A model generated the notes under the pieces. It had not been told where the DNA came from. It did not search any database and saw only the letters and a list, made by a program, of their open reading frames with translations. The translations under genes and the position numbers were made by a program. Shown here in pieces: positions 8,313 to 56,257 of a DNA stretch of 64,000 nt (position 1 is the stretch's first letter; every line of letters starts with the position of its first letter). This DNA comes from Candidatus Nomurabacteria bacterium (GTDB lineage Bacteria; Patescibacteriota; Minisyncoccia; Phycocordibacterales; UBA918): positions 88,095 through 152,094 of the forward strand of contig JACKGG010000002.1 in the NCBI GenBank assembly GCA_020632035.1, in the 5' to 3' direction.

Positions 8313-8380
8313 TTCGAGCCTGCTTCCAAGCTACAAACGAAAACAGCCTATATGCGGAGCATATAGGCTGTACGTTTGTG
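8313..8380. repeat. inverted 19-nt copy of the tRNA-Phe 3' end (TTCGAGCCTGCTtCCAAGC) followed by a 48-nt perfect palindrome abutting the tRNA 3' end
   Basis: 8313-8331 reads in tRNA sense on the plus strand, opposite to the gene. The palindrome is TACAAACGAAAACAGCCTATATGC-GGAG-CATATAGGCTGTACGTTTGTG. Confidence 0.65.
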
Positions 8381-8877: not shown

Positions 8878-8930
8878 GCCCCTTTAGTTAAATGGATATA
8901 ACCGCTCACTCAGAGCGGGCATTGTAGGCT
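8878..8930 (+). repeat. pseudo-tRNA: a copy of the 5' two-thirds of tRNA-Arg (acceptor, D-arm, anticodon arm with an altered loop, start of T-stem), followed by a 27-nt hairpin
   Basis: GCCCCTTTAGTTAAATGGATATAACCGCTCAC is identical to 9062-9093, then diverges. It lacks a T-arm and 3' acceptor. The hairpin CTGAAAAAG..CTTTTTCAG is at 8931-8957. Confidence 0.7.
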
Positions 8931-9061
8931 GAAAAAGACTGGGAGACTTTTTCAGAAGGTTAACTAGCATTTTATGACGTAAGGAAATAAAATGGTGATA
9001 ACCTATACTGATCTCGTAGAGATAGATTCCGTTGGAATCGAACCTATTGGTTACAATTGAA

Positions 9062-9136
9062 TACTTAAGCCCCTTTAGTTAAATGGATATAACCGCTCAC
9101 TCCTAACGAGCAGTTGTAGGTTCGATTCCTGCAGGG
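9062..9136 (+). tRNA. tRNA-Arg (anticodon CCT)
   Basis: GCCCCTT-TA-GTTA-AATGGATA-TAAC-C-GCTCA-CTCCTAA-CGAGC-AGTT-GTAGG-TTCGATT-CCTGC-AGGGGGC-A. There is one A·C mismatch at the base of the anticodon stem. Confidence 0.75.
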
Positions 9137-9340
9137 GGCACTAAAACACAACTCAACGGTCTTTGCGTTTTTCTTGTGTACCACAATCGTTTTGGTGCGC
9201 ACATCGTTCATGTACCCCTCGGGTGCTTGGCCGGGAAACATGCCAAGGCGCACTTTTTGGCGTAATCCTTGCTTGGTGTTCTCGGAAAGAGAATCGACAT
9301 AATATTTACTTTGTCCGAAAGCCATGCTCAACATGAACTT
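9137..9340 (-). pseudogene. remnant of a large serine recombinase (end of the catalytic domain through the start of the recombinase domain), truncated at the tRNA-Arg 3' end
   Basis: ..YYVDSLSENTKQGLRQKVRLGMFPGQAPEGY.. resembles the E-helix plus the G-x-x-P-x-GY start of the large-serine-recombinase 'recombinase' domain. The catalytic N-terminus and the C-terminal ~350 aa are missing. The open frame runs on into the tRNA. Confidence 0.4.
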
Positions 9341-10436: not shown

Positions 10437-11075
10437 CTAAACAACAGAGTTTCTGAGAGATTTCCCGACAAGGTATAGTAGTAGACAGTAGGCCGCAAAA
10501 ACGACTGTGATAGTGATGGTAAAAGACTGTTCATCTAGCCACCAGTCATCAAACCACTCAATAATACAGGTAAAAATCGCCAATCCACCCAGAACAGATG
10601 AAATGCCTACATTCTCAGGCCTCCTGAAAACAAATATAAACGGCATACTTAGGAGTAACCAGAAAAACATTAACGTCGTATAGCCAGATTCAAGGTGATA
10701 AATTTGTCCAATGAGCGAAAGAGCGCCACCTATGAGACCCACTCCGAACACGTTAGCTACGCGAGACAAAACTGATTCACTCTGCCTAACCTCAACCATG
10801 TAGTATGCAACACTAAGCGGAATTACAGGCAAAAGCAGGGCCAACAAAAGCTGGACGGTCTTACCTAGATAAGTCCAATTTGATGCGATTATTAATAAAA
10901 CACCAGCGGTTAAAACCGCTGCACCGACCAAAGAAACTATAGTGATGAGCTTTTTACCAGACTGCTCTGATGTCGATGTTTTTAGGTCTTGCAACATGTA
11001 GTTGGCTTGCTCAGGAGTAACCACCCCATTTCCTTGCCACCGACTTATTAGACCTTCAATGTCTTTCTGTTTCAT
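10437..11075 (-). CDS. membrane protein, DUF2157-like (soluble N-terminal domain + polytopic TM)
   Basis: N-terminal MKQKDIEGLISRWQGNGVVTPEQANYMLQDL, then ~5 TM helices. First gene of the operon. Confidence 0.4.
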   Translation of the reverse strand: MKQKDIEGLISRWQGNGVVTPEQANYMLQDLKTSTSEQSGKKLITIVSLVGAAVLTAGVLLIIASNWTYLGKTVQLLLALLLPVIPLSVAYYMVEVRQSESVLSRVANVFGVGLIGGALSLIGQIYHLESGYTTLMFFWLLLSMPFIFVFRRPENVGISSVLGGLAIFTCIIEWFDDWWLDEQSFTITITVVFAAYCLLLYLVGKSLRNSVV

Positions 11076-17232: not shown

Positions 17233-18903
17233 CTAATTATCTTGCGGAGCTATGATGTCTGTTTTGAAAATCTTAGTGTGGAATGATCGGTATATTTCTT
17301 TTAGTTCTGGTGAATTAAAAGCCAAGTAAGTAAGCACAACAGCAATCAGACCCATAATAAAGGCCGTCAGACCCTGCAACATAATTCCCAAAAAAGTCTC
17401 TTTGTTTACCCCGTCAACAATAAACGAGAGTGTGACGTATGAAGATATTGCACCTGCAAACGAGGCCAGTATTGCCTGGGTTGTGAGCTTAATAAGAGGA
17501 CGATAGCTCACTTTGAACGTACGTCTAGAAATAGCCAGAAGAAGTACTAGCTGGATAAATTGACCAGCGATAAAAGCTAGTGCTAAGACTAGAATCTCGG
17601 ACCCTGGCACGTCATTTAACCGAAAAACATCCTTTAGTAATATCTGAAAATTAAAATTACTTACGTAAATATTTTTTAATACATAAGCGAAGGCAACAGA
17701 AGCACCTCCACCCAATAAAGCAACCAAGAGCGGTAACTTAGTTCGGCCTCCCGCATAAAAGGCTCTGATCAAAAGCAGAAGAATCGCCTGAGCAAACAGT
17801 GAAATCACGAAAATAGCTAGTACGGCCGCAGTCAAACGAGTATCACCCCAGTCAAATTCCCCGCTACCAAGCAGAACTCTGACTATCTGAGCGCGCAATA
17901 CCACGACCAAGCCAATGACTGGGACAGACCAAAATATAATATGTCTAAGAGCGGTTAGGAGCTGTAAGTTGAAACCTTCATGATCACTCTTAGAATAGAG
18001 ATAAGACAAGGTTGGGAAAGCCGCTACTGAATAACTCATACCAATTACTGCGAGGGGTACCGATTGGAGATTAAAAGCAAACTGAAAAACAGATACCGAA
18101 CCAACTGCCATACCGGAAGCAATCCCAACAAGCACCAAAAGAACAATTTGATTGACCGACAAAGTTAGAGCTCTCGGTACTGACACCGCTAGGATGCTTG
18201 ATATCAAGCGCCATTTAATACGTGGAGCAACCACAAAAGTATATTCGCTGGTGATTATAAACGGTAATTGGATCAACAAATGGCCAAATGCGCCAACTAC
18301 CACACCAACCGCTAGTCCATACATACCAATGACAGGATACAAAAAAACGATCCCTGAAATGATACCAATGTTGTATAAAAGCGGACTGAGGGCATACAAA
18401 ATAAACCGGTGATTCATTTGAGTGACAACTCCACACAAACTAGACAAGCCAAGTAAGAATGGTTGGAGCAAAAGTATCTGAAGTAACGTTACCAAAGTTT
18501 CATAATCACCGACAAAACCAGGAAACAAGTGTGGAACGTACCAAGTGGCTGTTAGAGCCAAGAGGCCAGCCACCAACACATAGACACACAAAAACAAAGT
18601 AAATACTTGACTTAATACTTCCGCACCCGCTTTTTTATCTTCTGTCTCTGTATACTTGTTTACAAATGGAAGAAGTACGTATATCGAAAGTACCGAAGCA
18701 AACAACACAAATAATAAGTCTGGTATGCGGAAAGCTGCGTAATAAAGATCTAGCTCAAAACCTGCCCCAAAAGTATGGGCCAGCAGTCGATCTCGCACGA
18801 TTGCTAATATTTGTGAACCAACTGAAAAAAGCGCAATGATATACGCGGCCTGGTGCAGACCGCGTACTTCTTGGTACACAAAATTAATCACTCGCTTTAC
18901 CAT
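17233..18903 (-). CDS. murJ: lipid II flippase MurJ (MviN family)
   Basis: About 14 TM helices. The N-terminus GSQILAIVRDRLLAHTFGAGFELDLYYAAFRIPDLLF matches the MurJ signature region. Confidence 0.7.
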   Translation of the reverse strand: MVKRVINFVYQEVRGLHQAAYIIALFSVGSQILAIVRDRLLAHTFGAGFELDLYYAAFRIPDLLFVLFASVLSIYVLLPFVNKYTETEDKKAGAEVLSQVFTLFLCVYVLVAGLLALTATWYVPHLFPGFVGDYETLVTLLQILLLQPFLLGLSSLCGVVTQMNHRFILYALSPLLYNIGIISGIVFLYPVIGMYGLAVGVVVGAFGHLLIQLPFIITSEYTFVVAPRIKWRLISSILAVSVPRALTLSVNQIVLLVLVGIASGMAVGSVSVFQFAFNLQSVPLAVIGMSYSVAAFPTLSYLYSKSDHEGFNLQLLTALRHIIFWSVPVIGLVVVLRAQIVRVLLGSGEFDWGDTRLTAAVLAIFVISLFAQAILLLLIRAFYAGGRTKLPLLVALLGGGASVAFAYVLKNIYVSNFNFQILLKDVFRLNDVPGSEILVLALAFIAGQFIQLVLLLAISRRTFKVSYRPLIKLTTQAILASFAGAISSYVTLSFIVDGVNKETFLGIMLQGLTAFIMGLIAVVLTYLAFNSPELKEIYRSFHTKIFKTDIIAPQDN

Positions 18904-21534: not shown

Positions 21535-21553
21535 CCTTGCGGGTGTTTTTTGT
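21525..21553 (-). terminator. intrinsic terminator at the rnpB 3' end
   Basis: AAAAAACACCC-TTGC-GGGTGTTTTTT. Confidence 0.6.
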
Positions 21554-21900
21554 ACACATAAGCCGGATTCTGTCAGGCCGAAGCCCGGATGATTATTTAC
21601 CTAGGATGTATATTGCTATACACCTCTTGCGACTCTCTTTGCCGGCTCAAAATCCCAGAAGGATATTGAGCCGGCAAAGCGCGGTCTTGCACGCAGGTAA
21701 GGATTTAGCCGTTTCACCCTCTTGGTTTCCCAAAAGGCTATTCCCGAAGGAACTCCTCAGCTTTCGCTTTGAACGTCTCTGCTCGCACCTCTTATACTGC
21801 TATACGACGGGTGTTACCCGCTACCATCCTCCACAAATAAATGTGGGCGTGTCCGGACTTTCCTCCTCGTATAAATACGAGGCAATCATCGTGTCTGTAC
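21552..21900 (-). ncRNA. rnpB: RNase P RNA (bacterial type), ~350 nt
   Basis: The minus strand carries a P3 hairpin CCTCGTATTTATACGAGG followed by P4 GAGGAAAGTCCGGAC. Near the 3' end it carries ACAGAATCCGGCTTATG (the P4'/P2' consensus ACAGAAUCCGGCUUA). Ends are approximate. Confidence 0.75.
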
Positions 21901-22300
21901 ATTATGCAATATTATTATAAAATTGCAACTTTAATATAAAAATAAAAGGACCCTAGTGGACTCTGCCGAGCATATTGCTACTCAGCGAGGCCCACGTTAG
22001 GGTACTTGACTTTTTCCTATGAGAAGTTGCGCTATTAAGCGTCATTCTCTTTAGCTGGCCAATAGGCTGCTTTTGTAGGGTTGTTTAGCTTGAATGCCGA
22101 TTCATAATTTTAATCAACGAACTGTCGGGTCATGACAGATCATGTTTTCCTCCCATTGTTGGTTGTTTTAAAAATGTCCTGCAGTTGCTAGTATATCGCT
22201 GGATTGAGCGAGCTAGTGGTTAAAACCCACCAGAACTTCAATTTCCCGCTCGAACTGCAGGAAAGGCATACTAGCATGTAATAGATAACTTGTCAACTAT

Positions 22301-28850: not shown

Positions 28851-29348
28851 TTAATCTAGATAACTATCAAAATACACTGCGTGGCAGGTGTAGCCACCTG
28901 GGTTCTTCTGGAGATAATCTTGGTGGAAATCTTCAGCTGGCCAAAATCTGGTGAGGGGTTCTAGAGTGGTCACAACCTCCCCGTCCCATCTCTCAGATTC
29001 ATTCACTATTTCTATCATTTCTTCAGCGATTTTTTTCTCCTCTTCGTTACTAAAAAATATTGCTGACCGATACGAAGTGCCTTTATCGTTCCCCTGTTGA
29101 TTAAGTGTAGTCGGATTGTGTATCTGAAAAAAGAAATCAAGTATGTGTCGGTAGTCGGTTAGTTCGTCATCATACTCTATCTCAACGGCTTCAGCGTGGC
29201 CTGGGTGATTTTCGTAGGTTGGATTGTCGTTTCTGCCTCCGGTGTAGCCGGCTTCGGTCGAGATAATGCCTGGTTGGGAGCGGATGAGGTCTTCGAGTCC
29301 CCAGAAGCATCCACCTGCTAGTACTGATTTTTTAATCATGAGTTGCAA
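28851..29348 (-). CDS. msrA: peptide methionine sulfoxide reductase MsrA
   Basis: GCFWG active-site motif near the N-terminus; typical length. Confidence 0.85.
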
Positions 29349-29818
29349 TTATAGATTTTCTTCTCTCTACGAGAGCTGTACACCTTGTCGCCATCTTACT
29401 TCGTAAACTCGTAAGATTGCTGGCAAGGTCTTGCGAAATGGGGCCCGTCCCATTTCTCACCCAGAAGCATCCACCTGCTAGTACTGATTTTTTAATCATG
29501 AGTTGCAATTATAGATTTTCTTCTCTCTACGAGAGCTGTACACCTTGTCGCCATCTTACTTCGTAAACTCGTAAGATTGCTGGCAAGGTCTTGCGAAATG
29601 GGGCCCGTCCCATTTCTCACCCAGAAGCATCCACCTGCTAGTACTGATTTTTTAATCATGAGTTGCAATTATAGATTTTCTTCTCTCTACGAGAGCTGTA
29701 CACCTTGTCGCCATCTTACTTCGTAAACTCGTAAGATTGCTGGCAAGGTCTTGCGAAATGGGGCCCGTCCCATTTCTCACCCAGAAGCATCCACCTGCTA
29801 GTACTGATTTTTTAATCA
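29300..29818. repeat. three perfect 160-bp tandem units plus a 38-bp partial unit. Each contains the msrA start region and a ~106-nt hairpin-rich element.
   Basis: Units begin at 29301, 29461 and 29621, with a partial at 29781. Each unit is the msrA first 13 codons + 5' flank, followed by the element TCTCTACGAGAGCTGTACACCTTGTCGCCATCTTACTTCGTAAACTCGTAAGATTGCTGGCAAGGTCTTGCG + GAAATGGGGCCCGTCCCATTTC + TCAC. Confidence 0.9.
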
Positions 29819-38507: not shown

Positions 38508-38583
38508 CAGGGACTCGAACTTTTATAGGTTTCTATATATAGCTCAAATGAATTTTCTGCCGGACAGGGACTCGGTCACGAAT
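38508..38583. repeat. direct partial copies of the tRNA-Gln 3' segment (13 nt at 38508-20; 18 nt at 38557-74), the second fused to GTCACGAAT
   Basis: CTGCCGGACAGGGACTCG is identical to 38735-38752 of the tRNA-Gln gene (antisense). The match ends in the T-loop. Confidence 0.65.
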
Positions 38584-38663
38584 AAATTTTCTACGAAAAT
38601 TTTTCTCGACCCCGACTCGCCGACAAGCCCTCCCTTCGGTCGTCTTGTATACCGGCTCCGTCT

Positions 38664-38718
38664 TTCGAGTCCCTGCGGTCAGGTAATTTAGTAAAACCCC
38701 AATGCATACGCATTGGGG
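38664..38718. repeat. inverted 12-nt copy of the tRNA-Gln T-arm (TTCGAGTCCCTG) plus a hairpin (CCCCAATGC-ATA-CGCATTGGGG) abutting the tRNA 3' end
   Basis: It reads in tRNA sense on the plus strand, whereas the gene is on the minus strand. Same layout as the Phe and CAT loci. Confidence 0.6.
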
Positions 38719-45044: not shown

Positions 45045-45094
45045 ATGTGTATGTGGGGCTAGAGTACACTATTTTGTTCATTGCTTCAACACTT

Positions 45095-46677: not shown

Positions 46678-46877
46678 TATAACATCATATATTTATAATT
46701 ATAAACTGACCCCTACAGTTCTATAGCAGAGAAAAGGGCAGCTATAATAAAGAAAAGACTGAGTATAAAGCCAATTATTTTCTTATTGCAGAATGAGAAA
46801 GTCTAGGAGACTTATGAAGGCTTATTAAGGGTATTTTGAAGAATGAAAAATACCTAATGAGTGGACAGGTTCTGTAA

Positions 46878-46899
46878 GGACCGGAATCGAGTCACGAAT
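46878..46899. repeat. direct partial copy of the tRNA-CAT(47054..47124) T-arm (CCGGAATCGA) fused to GTCACGAAT
   Basis: Identical to 47063-47072 of the tRNA gene (antisense). The break falls in the T-loop. GTCACGAAT is the same 9-mer as at the tRNA-Gln locus. Confidence 0.55.
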
Positions 46900-46991
46900 C
46901 ACTAAGTATATTTATTCGGATTGCTCCAAATCTACAAGTGTTCTTGACCCCGCCTCAGCCTATTTCGTCTCCCAGACGAAGGCTTCCGGCC

Positions 46992-47050
46992 GTTCGATTC
47001 CTCCCGCTGGAATAAAAACAAAACCAGCATGAAGCTGGTTTTGTTTTTAT
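46992..47050. repeat. inverted partial copy of the tRNA-CAT 3' end (GTTCGATTCC-TCCCGC) plus a bidirectional terminator hairpin abutting the tRNA 3' end
   Basis: In tRNA sense on the plus strand. The hairpin is AAAACCAGC-ATGA-GCTGGTTTT with a T-run. Confidence 0.55.
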
Positions 47051-47053
47051 TTG

Positions 47054-47124
47054 TTGCGGGGCCCGGAATCGAACCGGGGTCTGGAGGTTATGAGCCTCCC
47101 GAGGTACCTCTCCTCTACCCCGCT
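47054..47124 (-). tRNA. tRNA with a CAT anticodon and an A1·A72 mismatch (initiator-like acceptor end; could also be Ile2)
   Basis: The reverse complement gives AGCGGGG-TA-GAGG-AGAGGTA-CCTC-G-GGAGG-CTCATAA-CCTCC-AGAC-CCCGG-TTCGATT-CCGGG-CCCCGCA-A. Position 1 A does not pair with 72 A. Confidence 0.7.
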
Positions 47125-47310
47125 ATGTATTTAACTTTACTTTTTCTGCAACGTTGGAGCAATCTCTCCTCATCTCTACGAGATCTGTACACCTTGTCGC
47201 CATTTTATTTCGTAAACTCACAAAATTGCTGGCAAGGTCTTGCGGAAGCGTCCCACGCTTCCTCACCCCGCTATGTATTTAACTTTACTTTTTCTGCAAC
47301 GTTGGAGTAC
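47117..47310. repeat. the same ~106-nt element as in the 29.3-kb array, flanked by a 43-bp perfect direct repeat that includes the first 8 nt of the tRNA-CAT 5' end
   Basis: DR CCCCGCTATGTATTTAACTTTACTTTTTCTGCAACGTTGGAG at 47117-47159 and 47266-47308. The element at 47161-47265 has the same 5' core as the 29-kb copy, then a different hairpin, GGAAGCGTCCCACGCTTCC, and the same TCAC end. Confidence 0.85.
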
Positions 47311-47345
47311 GTGTGAAAATACACTATTTTTAGTGAGTTGGCAAC

Positions 47346-55325: not shown

Positions 55326-55465
55326 GTCCCGAGGACCGAATTGTTATTTTTGTCCCGAGGTCGGTCCTCGGGACAAACAGACCTCGGGCAAAGTGGCATT
55401 AGAGAACATCAGGACAAAGCTTCATCCTATGCCCCGCTATCCCGAGGTCCGACCTCGGGATAGGT
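55326..55465. repeat. cluster of REP-type palindromes (GTCCCGAGGtcgGtCCTCGGGAC family) 3' of the RAYT gene
   Basis: Copies or half-copies at 55326-38, 55352-75, 55376-88 and 55438-65. Confidence 0.8.
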
Positions 55466-56130
55466 TTGCGCTTGAGTAGTCAAGCCAATGAGTGATCTGA
55501 TCATTGAAAGAATTTTCCTCCAGAAAGTATTGAGGAAAACTATCTTTAGAGAGAACATTAGACACAACTCTATTCACTCCCTGATAATCAAGGTAGCTTG
55601 AATATTTATATTCCTGCAAGTGTTTCAAAGCTTCATTTCTATTTTTAATACCAGTCTCTTTCCACTCTGGCTCAATTAATTTGATTGGATTTAGATGAAT
55701 GTACGAAAATAAATATTTTAGATATTCATCTGTATCAGCTCGCTTAGCTTTGTATCTACCTTCAAATAAGACACCTGTGCGATCATGTTTCTTATTAAAG
55801 TACATGGAGTATCCAGTTGAAAGTTTTTTCATAAACTGACTAATTCCTCCTTCGTTTACTTCTTTTATTAAAATATGAAAATGATTGGGCATTAATACGT
55901 AAGCACCAATGTCAACAAGGACCTTATTTCTATCAATTAAAAATAAATCGTCATATTTTTTACCTGCTTTATATTCATCCTTTATTGAAACAGGATTTGT
56001 ACTGTTGCATAAATACAGCAATGCCATAAAACGGTCATAGTCTGACTTTGTTTTGTATATTACCCTTTTCTCTGTACCTCGATTATAAATGTGGTAATAC
56101 TCATCGACAGCAATAGAGTTATCTTTCAAC
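55437..56130 (-). mobile_element. REP-associated tyrosine transposase (RAYT, IS200/IS605-like Y1 HuH transposase). The start is probably the internal Met (MLKDNS..), because the upstream part of the ORF reads through a REP palindrome.
   Basis: YHIYNRG, HuH motif MPNHFHILI, and a catalytic-Tyr region (RYKAKRADTDEYLKYLFSYIHLNP). REP palindromes flank it on both sides. Confidence 0.7.
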
Positions 56131-56149
56131 ATACAATTAATATACCACA

Positions 56150-56257
56150 CTGTCCCGAGGACCGACCTCGGGACAGATAAACATTTACTTACAAACAACA
56201 CAAAAAGTGGCCAGAAAGCGCTTTTTGATATTGTCCCGAGGTCGGACCTCGGGACAG
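56150..56257. repeat. two REP palindromes 5' of the RAYT gene
   Basis: CTGTCCCGAGGACCGACCTCGGGACAG (56150-77) and TTGTCCCGAGGTCGGACCTCGGGACAG (56231-57). Confidence 0.8.

Follow-up and report, generated by a model that had tools for sequence, protein, structure and literature searches.

A structured, occasionally mobile repeat module at duplicated gene ends, mostly of tRNA genes, in Nomurabacteria-like bacteria

The stretch of DNA analysed here (the window) comprises 64,000 nucleotides of a Candidatus Nomurabacteria bacterium (contig JACKGG010000002.1 of assembly GCA_020632035.1, positions 88,095 to 152,094), and its subject is a repeat module of ~95-120 nt with three hairpins, A, B and C, that lies at duplicated gene ends, mostly those of tRNA genes. 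At the site of first interest, an intact tRNA-Met(CAT) gene, whose A1.A72 mismatch suggests an initiator tRNA (hereafter tRNA-fMet), adjoins an X-E-X block, in which two copies of a direct repeat (X) enclose one module (E). The features of this site are listed below; R1 scores refer to a covariance model built from five aligned cores with the structure set by hand.

47053..47124 (-), intact gene copy of tRNA-Met(CAT) (ARAGORN; Rfam tRNA 57.3 bits)
47117..47159 (-), gene-proximal copy of X, tRNA nt 1-8 plus 35 nt of native leader (perfect 43-nt repeat)
47160..47264 (-), module E, 105 nt, between the two copies of X (R1 93 bits, E = 5e-20)
47264-47244 (-), hairpin A, GGAAGCG-UGGGA-CGCUUCC
47243-47239 (-), linker between A and B
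47238-47191 (-), hairpin B, long and bulged
47190-47185 (-), spacer between B and C
47184-47172 (-), hairpin C, AUCUC-GUA-GAGAU
47171-47160 (-), module tail, GAGGAGAGAUUG
47265..47307 (-), distal copy of X, a truncated pseudo-start of tRNA-fMet (leader plus nt 1-8; perfect 43-nt repeat)
47316..47344 (-), promoter-like site TTGCCA-17 nt-TATTTT with the motif AAATAGTGTAnnnT, upstream of the entire X-E-X block

The original prediction, made from the letters of the window, had described a perfect 43-bp direct repeat that includes 8 nt of the tRNA, and this is what is found at 47117-47159 and 47265-47307, with X composed of tRNA-fMet nt 1-8 and 35 nt of upstream leader; the spacing is 148 nt, where a duplicated segment of 149 bp had been given. 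The 5' core, said to be about 90% identical over 75 nt between this module and those at the gene msrA, measures 91% against each msrA unit (29364-29438 versus 47173-47247; blastn E = 1e-22), and the fold of the fMet module has a z score of -3.9. Since the identical X-E-X block is present in two independent assemblies of the same species (L003 and L004; L numbers denote comparison sequences), it is no assembly artefact. A native-like leader is also present in the element-free tRNA-fMet site of L010. The distal X begins 9 nt after the -10 box of the promoter-like site, whose motif AAATAGTGTAnnnT occurs in the window only upstream of tRNA genes (at 1392-1405 and in three repeats of it, at 45061-45074 and at 47316-47329; 6 observed versus 0.08 expected). 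Judged by this distribution and by its conservation upstream of tRNA-fMet in relatives, the motif is probably the lineage's tRNA promoter element. Because the promoter-like site lies upstream of the whole X-E-X block, the module would be part of the tRNA-fMet precursor leader.

Beside the block, the stretch 46883-47050, between a diverged module copy and tRNA-fMet, holds tRNA-like debris, including a sequence antisense to the T-arm of tRNA-fMet, CCGGAATCGAG, and one in sense that resembles the 3' end of a tRNA, GGCCGTTCGATTCCTCCCGCTGGAA. After this debris, a perfect 18-bp hairpin at 47011-47051 acts as the tRNA-fMet terminator. An open reading frame at 47029-47316, which runs over tRNA-fMet and the module, is probably spurious.

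Model R1 recovered every known copy and found new ones, with matches in the window at 29362-29754 (three), 47171-47243, 8952-9024 and 46815-46882. The copies away from the tRNA-fMet block are as follows.

29300..29818 (-), msrA array (X-E)3-X (TRF period 160, 3.2 copies, 100% identity; R1 93.9 bits per unit); hairpin A is GAAAUGGG..CCCAUUUC and the tail is 24 nt
8878..9068 (+), whole tRNA-Arg locus, of the 5' type defined below (R1 86.2 bits)
8878-8930 (+), pseudo 5' copy of tRNA-Arg, nt 1 to ~52, with nt 1-34 identical and the rest diverged
8929-9024 (+), tRNA-Arg module A-B-C
9025-9068 (+), tail of the tRNA-Arg locus, with sense and antisense T-arm fragments
9069-9141 (+), intact tRNA-Arg, after the tail
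46791..46882 (+), diverged complete A-B-C copy amid tRNA-like fragments (R1 28.7 bits, E = 8.5e-5, for 46815-46882)

The msrA array shares the X-E-X form of the tRNA-fMet block, as had been proposed, and does so as a perfect (X-E)3-X, in which X is 39 nt long (msrA codons 1-13 minus the first base) and the 121-nt E is present three times (29339-29459, 29499-29619 and 29659-29779). The module provides the A of the new ATG, and the truncated upstream msrA frame stops at a TAA that overlaps it. A promoter in the msrA tail was considered and rejected, as a complete sigma-70-type site was not found in the tail, in which a TATAAT stands alone 8 nt ahead of the ATG. The original prediction had thus seen the fMet and msrA copies; it had missed the third window copy, upstream of tRNA-Arg at 8929-9024 (+), which came from a sensitive search, and that at 46791-46882, as well as the 3'-type copies and the pairing of module and tRNA fragment described below. 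The copy at 46791-46882 consists of UGAG, a hairpin A with a UAGGA loop, B and C in an orientation opposite to that of its present neighbours, and it is present in L003 too.

Read on the gene-sense strand, every copy has the order (U)GAG, hairpin A, a UCGnAAG linker, hairpin B, GUACWG and hairpin C. Hairpin A has a variable stem of 5-9 bp, with eight different stems among the copies and a UGGGA loop in 7 of 10; the long hairpin B has two stems, an outer one of 6 bp and an inner one of 10 bp, which are separated by an internal loop and capped by a 3-13-nt loop; hairpin C has 5 bp and a GUA loop. This fold is conserved through compensatory change. Specifically, 96% of cells are paired in a hand-checked MAFFT alignment of five sequences, with double-sided changes in 12 of the 21 pairs, and a model-made alignment of the B/C core from 11 distinct sequences has 95.2% of cells paired and double-sided changes in 19 of 21. 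None of 500 shuffles matches this, and sliding the partners by 1-3 columns lowers the paired fraction to 39-46%; the model-made alignment, being fitted to the structure, inflates pairing somewhat, and the margin is large. In hairpin A, where the full-length MAFFT alignment (A3) is too poor for pair counts, covariation is judged by inspection only.

What the original prediction observed in the letters is thus confirmed, and its interpretation is supported in part. The covariation test that it called for bears out its claim that structure is kept while sequence changes: covariation in the 11 distinct copies is very strong, and 19 of the 21 pairs change on both sides. The terminal hairpin is indeed swapped for a different sequence of the same shape. 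Within the stem that changes from AUCUUAC/GUAAGAU to AUUUUAU/ACAAAAU, the two compensatory pairs stand, and a third changed position had been overlooked, which is A.C on the plus strand and G.U on the minus strand. Non-Watson-Crick cells on the sense strand comprise 9 G.U versus 2 A.C (about 7 versus 1 independent events), and this excess indicates that folding takes place on the sense strand, in the form of RNA or single-stranded DNA. Of the 10 loci, nine are in sense to the adjacent gene, and only the degenerate copy (46791-46882) is not. What had been called "5' core" and "terminal hairpin" was therefore read backwards, as the functional strand is the minus, gene-sense strand. Likewise, the TCAC in which both copies were said to end is there if one reads across the boundary of insert and flank, and in gene sense it is the conserved 5' end of the module, (T)GAG.

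Modules lie at no fewer than seven loci in Nomurabacteria-like genomes of the candidate phyla radiation (CPR). In relatives, R1 identifies copies at tRNA-fMet in L011-L014 and L021/L022, after an elongator-type tRNA-Met (Met-e) in L025/L026 and after tRNA-Gln in L011-L013, and a scan of public metagenomes added a shorter relative that adjoins tRNA-Leu in L008 and L009, the only real matches of that scan. An exact-pattern scan for the core in 185,579 species-representative genomes returned two chance matches (Prevotella and Aquimarina), neither of which fits R1. Three scans of viral contigs gave nothing, or chance matches with neither a model match nor a tRNA, and so provide no evidence for a phage-borne parent element. 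Rfam 15, searched with the module and with whole units at gathering and permissive thresholds, yielded no family matches, and a literature search, which did not reach the original papers on E. coli tyrT, no description of the family. Taken together, the module family is real and apparently an undescribed structured repeat family of CPR bacteria. Self-cleaving ribozymes, group II intron domains and integron attC sites were dropped as candidates, as neither their defining motifs nor an Rfam signal are present, and a CRISPR-like array is ruled out by the identical "spacers" and the absence of cas genes.

A second feature common to the copies is their position. In each case a gene end, mostly that of a tRNA gene, has been duplicated in tandem over 22-75 nt and the module occupies the new junction, so that one copy of the gene stays intact. 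In the 5'-type layout, a truncated gene start is followed by A-B-C, the tail and the intact gene, and hairpin A abuts the truncated copy; tRNA-fMet (leader plus nt 1-8), msrA (first 13 codons) and tRNA-Arg (pseudo-copy of nt 1 to ~52) are of this type. In the 3'-type layout, found in relatives at tRNA-Met-e, tRNA-Gln and tRNA-Leu, the intact tRNA and its trailer are followed by a head, A-B-C and a duplicated piece that runs from the T-loop to beyond the tRNA 3' end, and hairpin C abuts this fragment. The junction at tRNA-Met in L026 reads ..GAGUUC|AAUUCCUCCCAUCGACAC, the duplicated fragment at tRNA-Gln in L011/L012 comes with a second, different terminator, and the duplicated piece at tRNA-Leu in L008 is a short remnant, TCGATCCC.

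The A-B linker of 3'-type units is extended, and its sequence complements the T-loop/T-stem fragment behind hairpin C. The resulting duplexes (P1) have 8-11 bp and enclose B and C.

tRNA-Gln: linker GGGACUCGAA, fragment after C UUCGAGUCCC
tRNA-Leu: linker GGGGGUCGAA, fragment after C UUCGAUCCCC
tRNA-Met: linker GGGGAAUUGAA, fragment after C UUCAAUUCCUCC

The linker follows the T-loop of its own tRNA, with TCGAA for Gln and Leu and TTGAA for Met-e, which is suggestive of pairing specific to the cognate tRNA, for three tRNAs and with partial cross-reactivity. The 5' head of the L026 unit, GUCGUGG, can in addition pair with the acceptor 3' strand to give a tRNA-like outline. No P1 pairing was found in the 5'-type copies. 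A complete tRNA-like fold was rejected for the 5'-type unit, which has no 3' acceptor strand; it forms only a weak T-arm-like hairpin, GGAG-AGAUUG-CUCC, together with the start of X.

Several other tRNA genes in the window have partial copies beside them. Around tRNA-Gln (38508-38675) lies a degenerate 3'-type arrangement that looks like a decayed 3'-type unit, with two sense tRNA 3'-end fragments and one antisense T-arm fragment, cagggactcgaa, downstream of the tRNA and a GTA-loop hairpin, AATTTTC-GTA-GAAAATT. An inverted 19-nt copy of the tRNA-Phe 3' end (95% identical) is found at 8313-8331, ~50 nt downstream of tRNA-Phe. Before tRNA-Val(GAC), a perfect tandem array (1312-1773, period 110, 4.2 copies) repeats a unit of tRNA nt 1-22, a 36-nt hairpin insert, tRNA nt 36-48, TAC and a native-type tRNA promoter and leader, and a further chimera, made of tRNA nt 12-22, that hairpin and tRNA nt 36-52, stands just after the tRNA at 1846-1908. 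This array has the X-E-X logic of the module loci and a different insert, which R1 does not detect.

The original prediction had also called for element-free alleles, and these exist for tRNA-fMet (L010, L025/L026) and for msrA (L029-L032). The start of msrA is uninterrupted in the closest relatives compared (L029/L030, with a neighbouring protein 82% identical, and L031/L032, 75%) and occupied in all six same-species contigs. The insertion at msrA, with its perfect duplication of 39 nt, is therefore lineage-specific, and shows that the module is mobile and was so recently. The tRNA-fMet site has a longer history. It is empty in L010 (neighbouring protein 74% identical) and L025/L026 (64%), whereas L011 (67%) and L021 (66%) carry the module there with identical junctions (..AGCGGGGU|GAG.. 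and ..|CUCCAACG), and in both of these the two copies of X have diverged from each other. As the junctions are common to three lineages, whose neighbouring protein is only 66-67% identical, the fMet copy is old, and its reading as a recent event does not hold. The distribution requires either repeated loss or more than one gain; repeated loss is conceivable because a recombination event that joins the two X repeats would bring back the empty site precisely. In L021, the tRNA-fMet gene (10740-11004) carries a group I intron, which lies in the anticodon loop after CTCATA (Rfam Intron_gpI 60.2 bits, threshold 50), and on account of which ARAGORN missed the tRNA.

Other 5' pseudo-copies of tRNA-fMet lie upstream of the real gene in L023 (10640-11100) and L027 (2893-3100), with spacers unrelated to the module. 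They keep tRNA-fMet nt 1-12 or 1-19 and the anticodon loop CTCATAACC, and L023 has tRNA-fMet 3' fragments downstream as well; in this clade the tRNA-fMet site is therefore a duplication hotspot in its own right. Arrays, in turn, change in length by entire E+X units: there are two units of 142 nt in L025 and one in L026, which encodes the identical protein, and the msrA array has 1, at least 2 or 3 units in different assemblies. The proposal that the element spreads or amplifies together with its left flank thus applies within arrays, where the unit E+X is amplified (L025 versus L026; 1-3 copies at msrA); at new sites, each locus duplicates its own gene end. L025 also has a phage-type integrase gene directly after tRNA-Thr (17583-18485), which is not in L026, of the same species, and its region looks like a strain-specific integrated element.

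Among the remaining features of the window, one encodes a mobile-element protein, the only one found.

55437-56201, Y1/HUH transposase-like gene, a RAYT (Pfam Y1_Tnp 35.9 bits, cut-off 23)

Pairs of GC-rich palindromes (GTCCCGAGGnCnGnCCTCGGGAC) lie on both sides of this gene (region 55341-56257), as is typical of repetitive extragenic palindromic (REP) sequences with their RAYT. The flanks, GTCCCGAGG..CCTCGGGAC, do not resemble hairpins A-C, and neither does the related palindrome CACCGAGGTC/GACCTCGGTG that flanks a 47% identical homologue in L011. The RAYT was therefore rejected as the mobilising enzyme, since its own REP palindromes differ from A-C and are conserved with the gene, and we treat RAYT and REP as a separate system. 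Neither an integrase nor a reverse transcriptase was found among 20 further window open reading frames scanned, and the neighbours of module loci are GatCAB, LigA, NTP-transferases, MsrA and a DEAD-box helicase. The window also encodes a bacterial class A RNase P RNA (21547-21901; 106 bits, threshold 100) in a divergent CPR version, overlapped on the opposite strand by a probably spurious open reading frame (21537-21920).

The available data are compatible with a model that we rank first and hold tentatively, at slightly less than an even chance, in which the module is transcribed and processed and is copied and inserted on rare occasions. Specifically, the fMet module, which stands between the native tRNA promoter and the tRNA, would be transcribed within the tRNA precursor, and would act, or propagate, as a structured sense-strand RNA freed by the tRNA-processing enzymes. 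The duplicated tRNA piece may supply part of the processing or folding context, as with RttR from the E. coli tyrT repeats. New copies would arise from rare copy-and-insert events that duplicate the target, either through staggered breaks or because a template switch copies the gene end a second time, and arrays may subsequently grow and shrink by recombination or slippage between the perfect repeats.

Several points weigh against this model. Transcription and processing of the module are deduced from position only, and covariation fits a folded single-stranded DNA intermediate equally well. The copy at 46791-46882 is antisense to its present neighbours. As 5'-type copies have no P1 pairing, that both types share one RNA function is no more than a possibility, and the specificity of P1 comes from three tRNAs and is only partly cognate. 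The alignment fitted to the model leans to structure, though the hand-checked MAFFT alignment agrees with it, and short-read assemblies collapse tandem repeats, so that some differences in msrA copy number may be artefacts. Finally, we know of no mechanism that makes 39-43-nt target duplications around a 100-nt insert.

Other explanations assign the mobility to different agents. We consider it unlikely that the module is a non-autonomous DNA transposon, similar to a miniature inverted-repeat transposable element (MITE) or a palindrome-associated transposable element (PATE), for which an enzyme acting in trans would recognise single-stranded DNA by hairpins A and C, both subterminal, and leave 22-43-nt target duplications by unusually long staggered cuts. 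The defined 5' end ((T)GAG plus hairpin A), the position of hairpin C near the other end, the strand-specific folding and the perfect identity of X at msrA (39 nt) and fMet (43 nt), as in fresh target duplications, would all suit such an element, as would the presence of a Y1/HUH gene in the window (35.9 bits). However, that protein is a RAYT with unrelated REP palindromes of its own, in the window and in L011, enzymes of the IS200/IS605 type make no target duplication, and the duplications here vary from 22 to 75 nt; moreover, the element ends are not constant, with 3' tails and 5' heads that differ among copies, the junctions have no conserved target motif, and no autonomous relative was found in the genome, metagenome and viral scans. 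Insertion could alternatively proceed through RNA, with a reverse transcriptase that switches templates and joins module RNA and host-gene RNA end to end, and with the chimeric, sometimes concatemeric, complementary DNA (cDNA) recombining into the gene. Module and gene fragment are always in the same sense, the preferred partners are tRNAs, which outnumber all other small RNAs, repeated template jumps typically yield perfect concatemers such as (X-E)3-4, and the outer edge of X falls on RNA landmarks: tRNA nt +1 (at Arg and in the differently built Val array), the msrA start codon and, at fMet, 9 nt after the -10 box, a probable transcription start. The +1 boundary, however, also results if homology simply stops at the tRNA edge, the X of tRNA-Gln in L011 runs ~10 nt beyond the terminator U-tract and thus past the likely RNA 3' end, the 3' fragments have no untemplated CCA, and no reverse transcriptase is among the window open reading frames examined, which leaves this route distinctly unlikely in our view.

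We give still less credence to two further explanations, and rate them equally low. In one, the duplications would be attL/attR scars of Campbell-type integration into tRNA genes, and the module the surviving attP arm of a lost integrative element. The 3'-type duplications, which extend from the T-loop past the 3' end of the tRNA, correspond to the identity block that tRNA-targeting integrases classically use, both terminators of the L011 tRNA-Gln are intact with different stems, as if from two alleles, and a phage-type integrase adjoins tRNA-Thr in L025. Against this, the duplications of msrA (39 nt of coding sequence) and fMet (35 nt of leader) are lineage-specific, and an incoming element would carry neither; whole units have only 110-160 bp, no integrase lies next to any copy, and the strongly covarying hairpins indicate a single-stranded form rather than double-stranded arm sites. 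In the other, there would be no dedicated mobility, and replication template switching at hairpin-rich, highly transcribed loci would copy the module as filler into spontaneous short tandem duplications. This would account for its position exactly at the duplication junction, for the variable duplication lengths and module tails, for the short G-rich microhomology that precedes UGAG where the module joins msrA and fMet (GGG/GGGGT), and for the L023 and L027 pseudo-copies, in which the fMet site duplicates with unrelated spacers in place of the module. It does not sit well with the recurrence of the same module, with a constant 5' end, at at least five independent loci, or with the structural selection that has kept it across lineages whose neighbouring protein is only 66-67% identical. 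A little more probable than these two, and nonetheless doubtful, is the joint proposition that the module is a small mobile element within tRNA transcription units that picks its targets by base pairing, and represents a guide-bearing, gene-sparing CPR insertion system of no known enzyme family. Target choice would lie in its linker (UCGAA or UUGAA plus extension), through base pairs with T-loop and T-stem, either of a tRNA or of a tRNA gene, and insertion in sense, via RNA/cDNA or single-stranded DNA, would re-copy a target segment of 20-75 nt and thereby spare essential genes.

CPR bacteria (Patescibacteria) have tiny genomes with little room for junk, and this lineage nonetheless retains, apparently within its tRNA precursors, a 100-nt structured module whose fold is clearly selected for. 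Should this module be an RNA released by tRNA processing, it would constitute a new CPR small-RNA family. It would also be a second and far richer instance of the E. coli tyrT/RttR architecture, which has long lacked an explanation, and would thereby offer a comparative handle on the tyrT puzzle, with many loci, both gene ends, and gains and losses that can be dated. Should the module instead be a mobile element, 22-75-nt target duplications that always regenerate an intact gene would be an unusual, gene-sparing mode of insertion, and the finding would gain in interest if a dedicated insertion mechanism lies behind this duplication and the linker that pairs with the target. There are practical consequences as well: perfect 110-160-nt arrays break short-read assemblies at tRNA genes (L004-L007, L016, L017, L020), and module arrays create spurious open reading frames, such as that at 47029-47316.

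Compared with known systems, the module resembles REP/REPIN sequences, MITEs, ERIC, BOX, RUP and Correia elements and Rickettsia palindromic elements in being short, non-coding, hairpin-forming, multi-copy and occasionally mobile, and some REP/MITE-type repeats also insert into genes and leave them functional. Those families, however, duplicate 0-10 bp of target, insert either way and are not tied to duplicated gene ends. The terminal inverted repeats and fixed short duplication that define MITEs are absent here, with at most a 4-nt UGAG/CUCA symmetry in the msrA copy only, 3' tails that differ among copies and duplications of variable length. Nor are the palindromes flanking the Y1 gene, by which an IS200/IS605 PATE or a REP/REPIN is recognised, those of the module, and 22-75-nt duplications with no shared junction tetranucleotide stand in place of the fixed 4-5-nt target and lack of duplication of IS200/IS605. 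The att sites of tyrosine integrases share the partial tRNA copies beside an intact tRNA and the 3' fragments that start in the T-loop; they differ from the module loci, where ~100 nt without an integrase separate the repeats (105-121 nt at fMet and msrA), 5' ends and a protein gene are duplicated too, and the duplicated segments include lineage-specific non-tRNA sequence, such that X holds leader (35 nt, fMet) or msrA coding sequence. Retron non-coding RNAs, the RNAs of template repeat and spacer in diversity-generating retroelements and tRNA-derived short interspersed nuclear elements are likewise multi-hairpin sense RNAs of ~100-200 nt beside a target repeat, and tRNA mimicry or tRNA association is known among them. 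The module loci have no adjacent reverse transcriptase, by which retrons and diversity-generating retroelements are recognised, no adenine mutagenesis between repeats and no a1/a2 repeats, and the copies are dispersed inside host transcription units.

The closest known architecture is that of tyrT/RttR. In E. coli K-12, tyrV (tyrT/tyrV) is followed by 3.1 tandem 178-bp units, each with the last 19 nt of tRNA-Tyr from the T-loop and with an antisense segment, GGGGAAGGAU, able to pair with the tRNA fragment, and the small RNA RttR is annotated there. There is no sequence or Rfam similarity between this repeat and the module, and the Rfam RtT model gave no match in permissive scans of the module and complete units. 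The E. coli repeat is confined to a single locus, whereas the CPR module is dispersed over many, including tRNA 5' ends and a protein gene, and has a covarying three-hairpin core; the fMet and msrA copies of the window, being of the 5' type, match the tyrT layout only as its mirror image. The 3'-type units, in turn, share its (X-E)n-X layout (L025/L026, L011 Gln, L008), and the arrangement by which Rfam describes RtT, tandem units downstream of a tRNA with a tRNA 3' segment, is found in L025/L026, L011/L012 and L008. By analogy, this likeness supports a model in which the modules would be transcribed with their tRNA and released by its processing.

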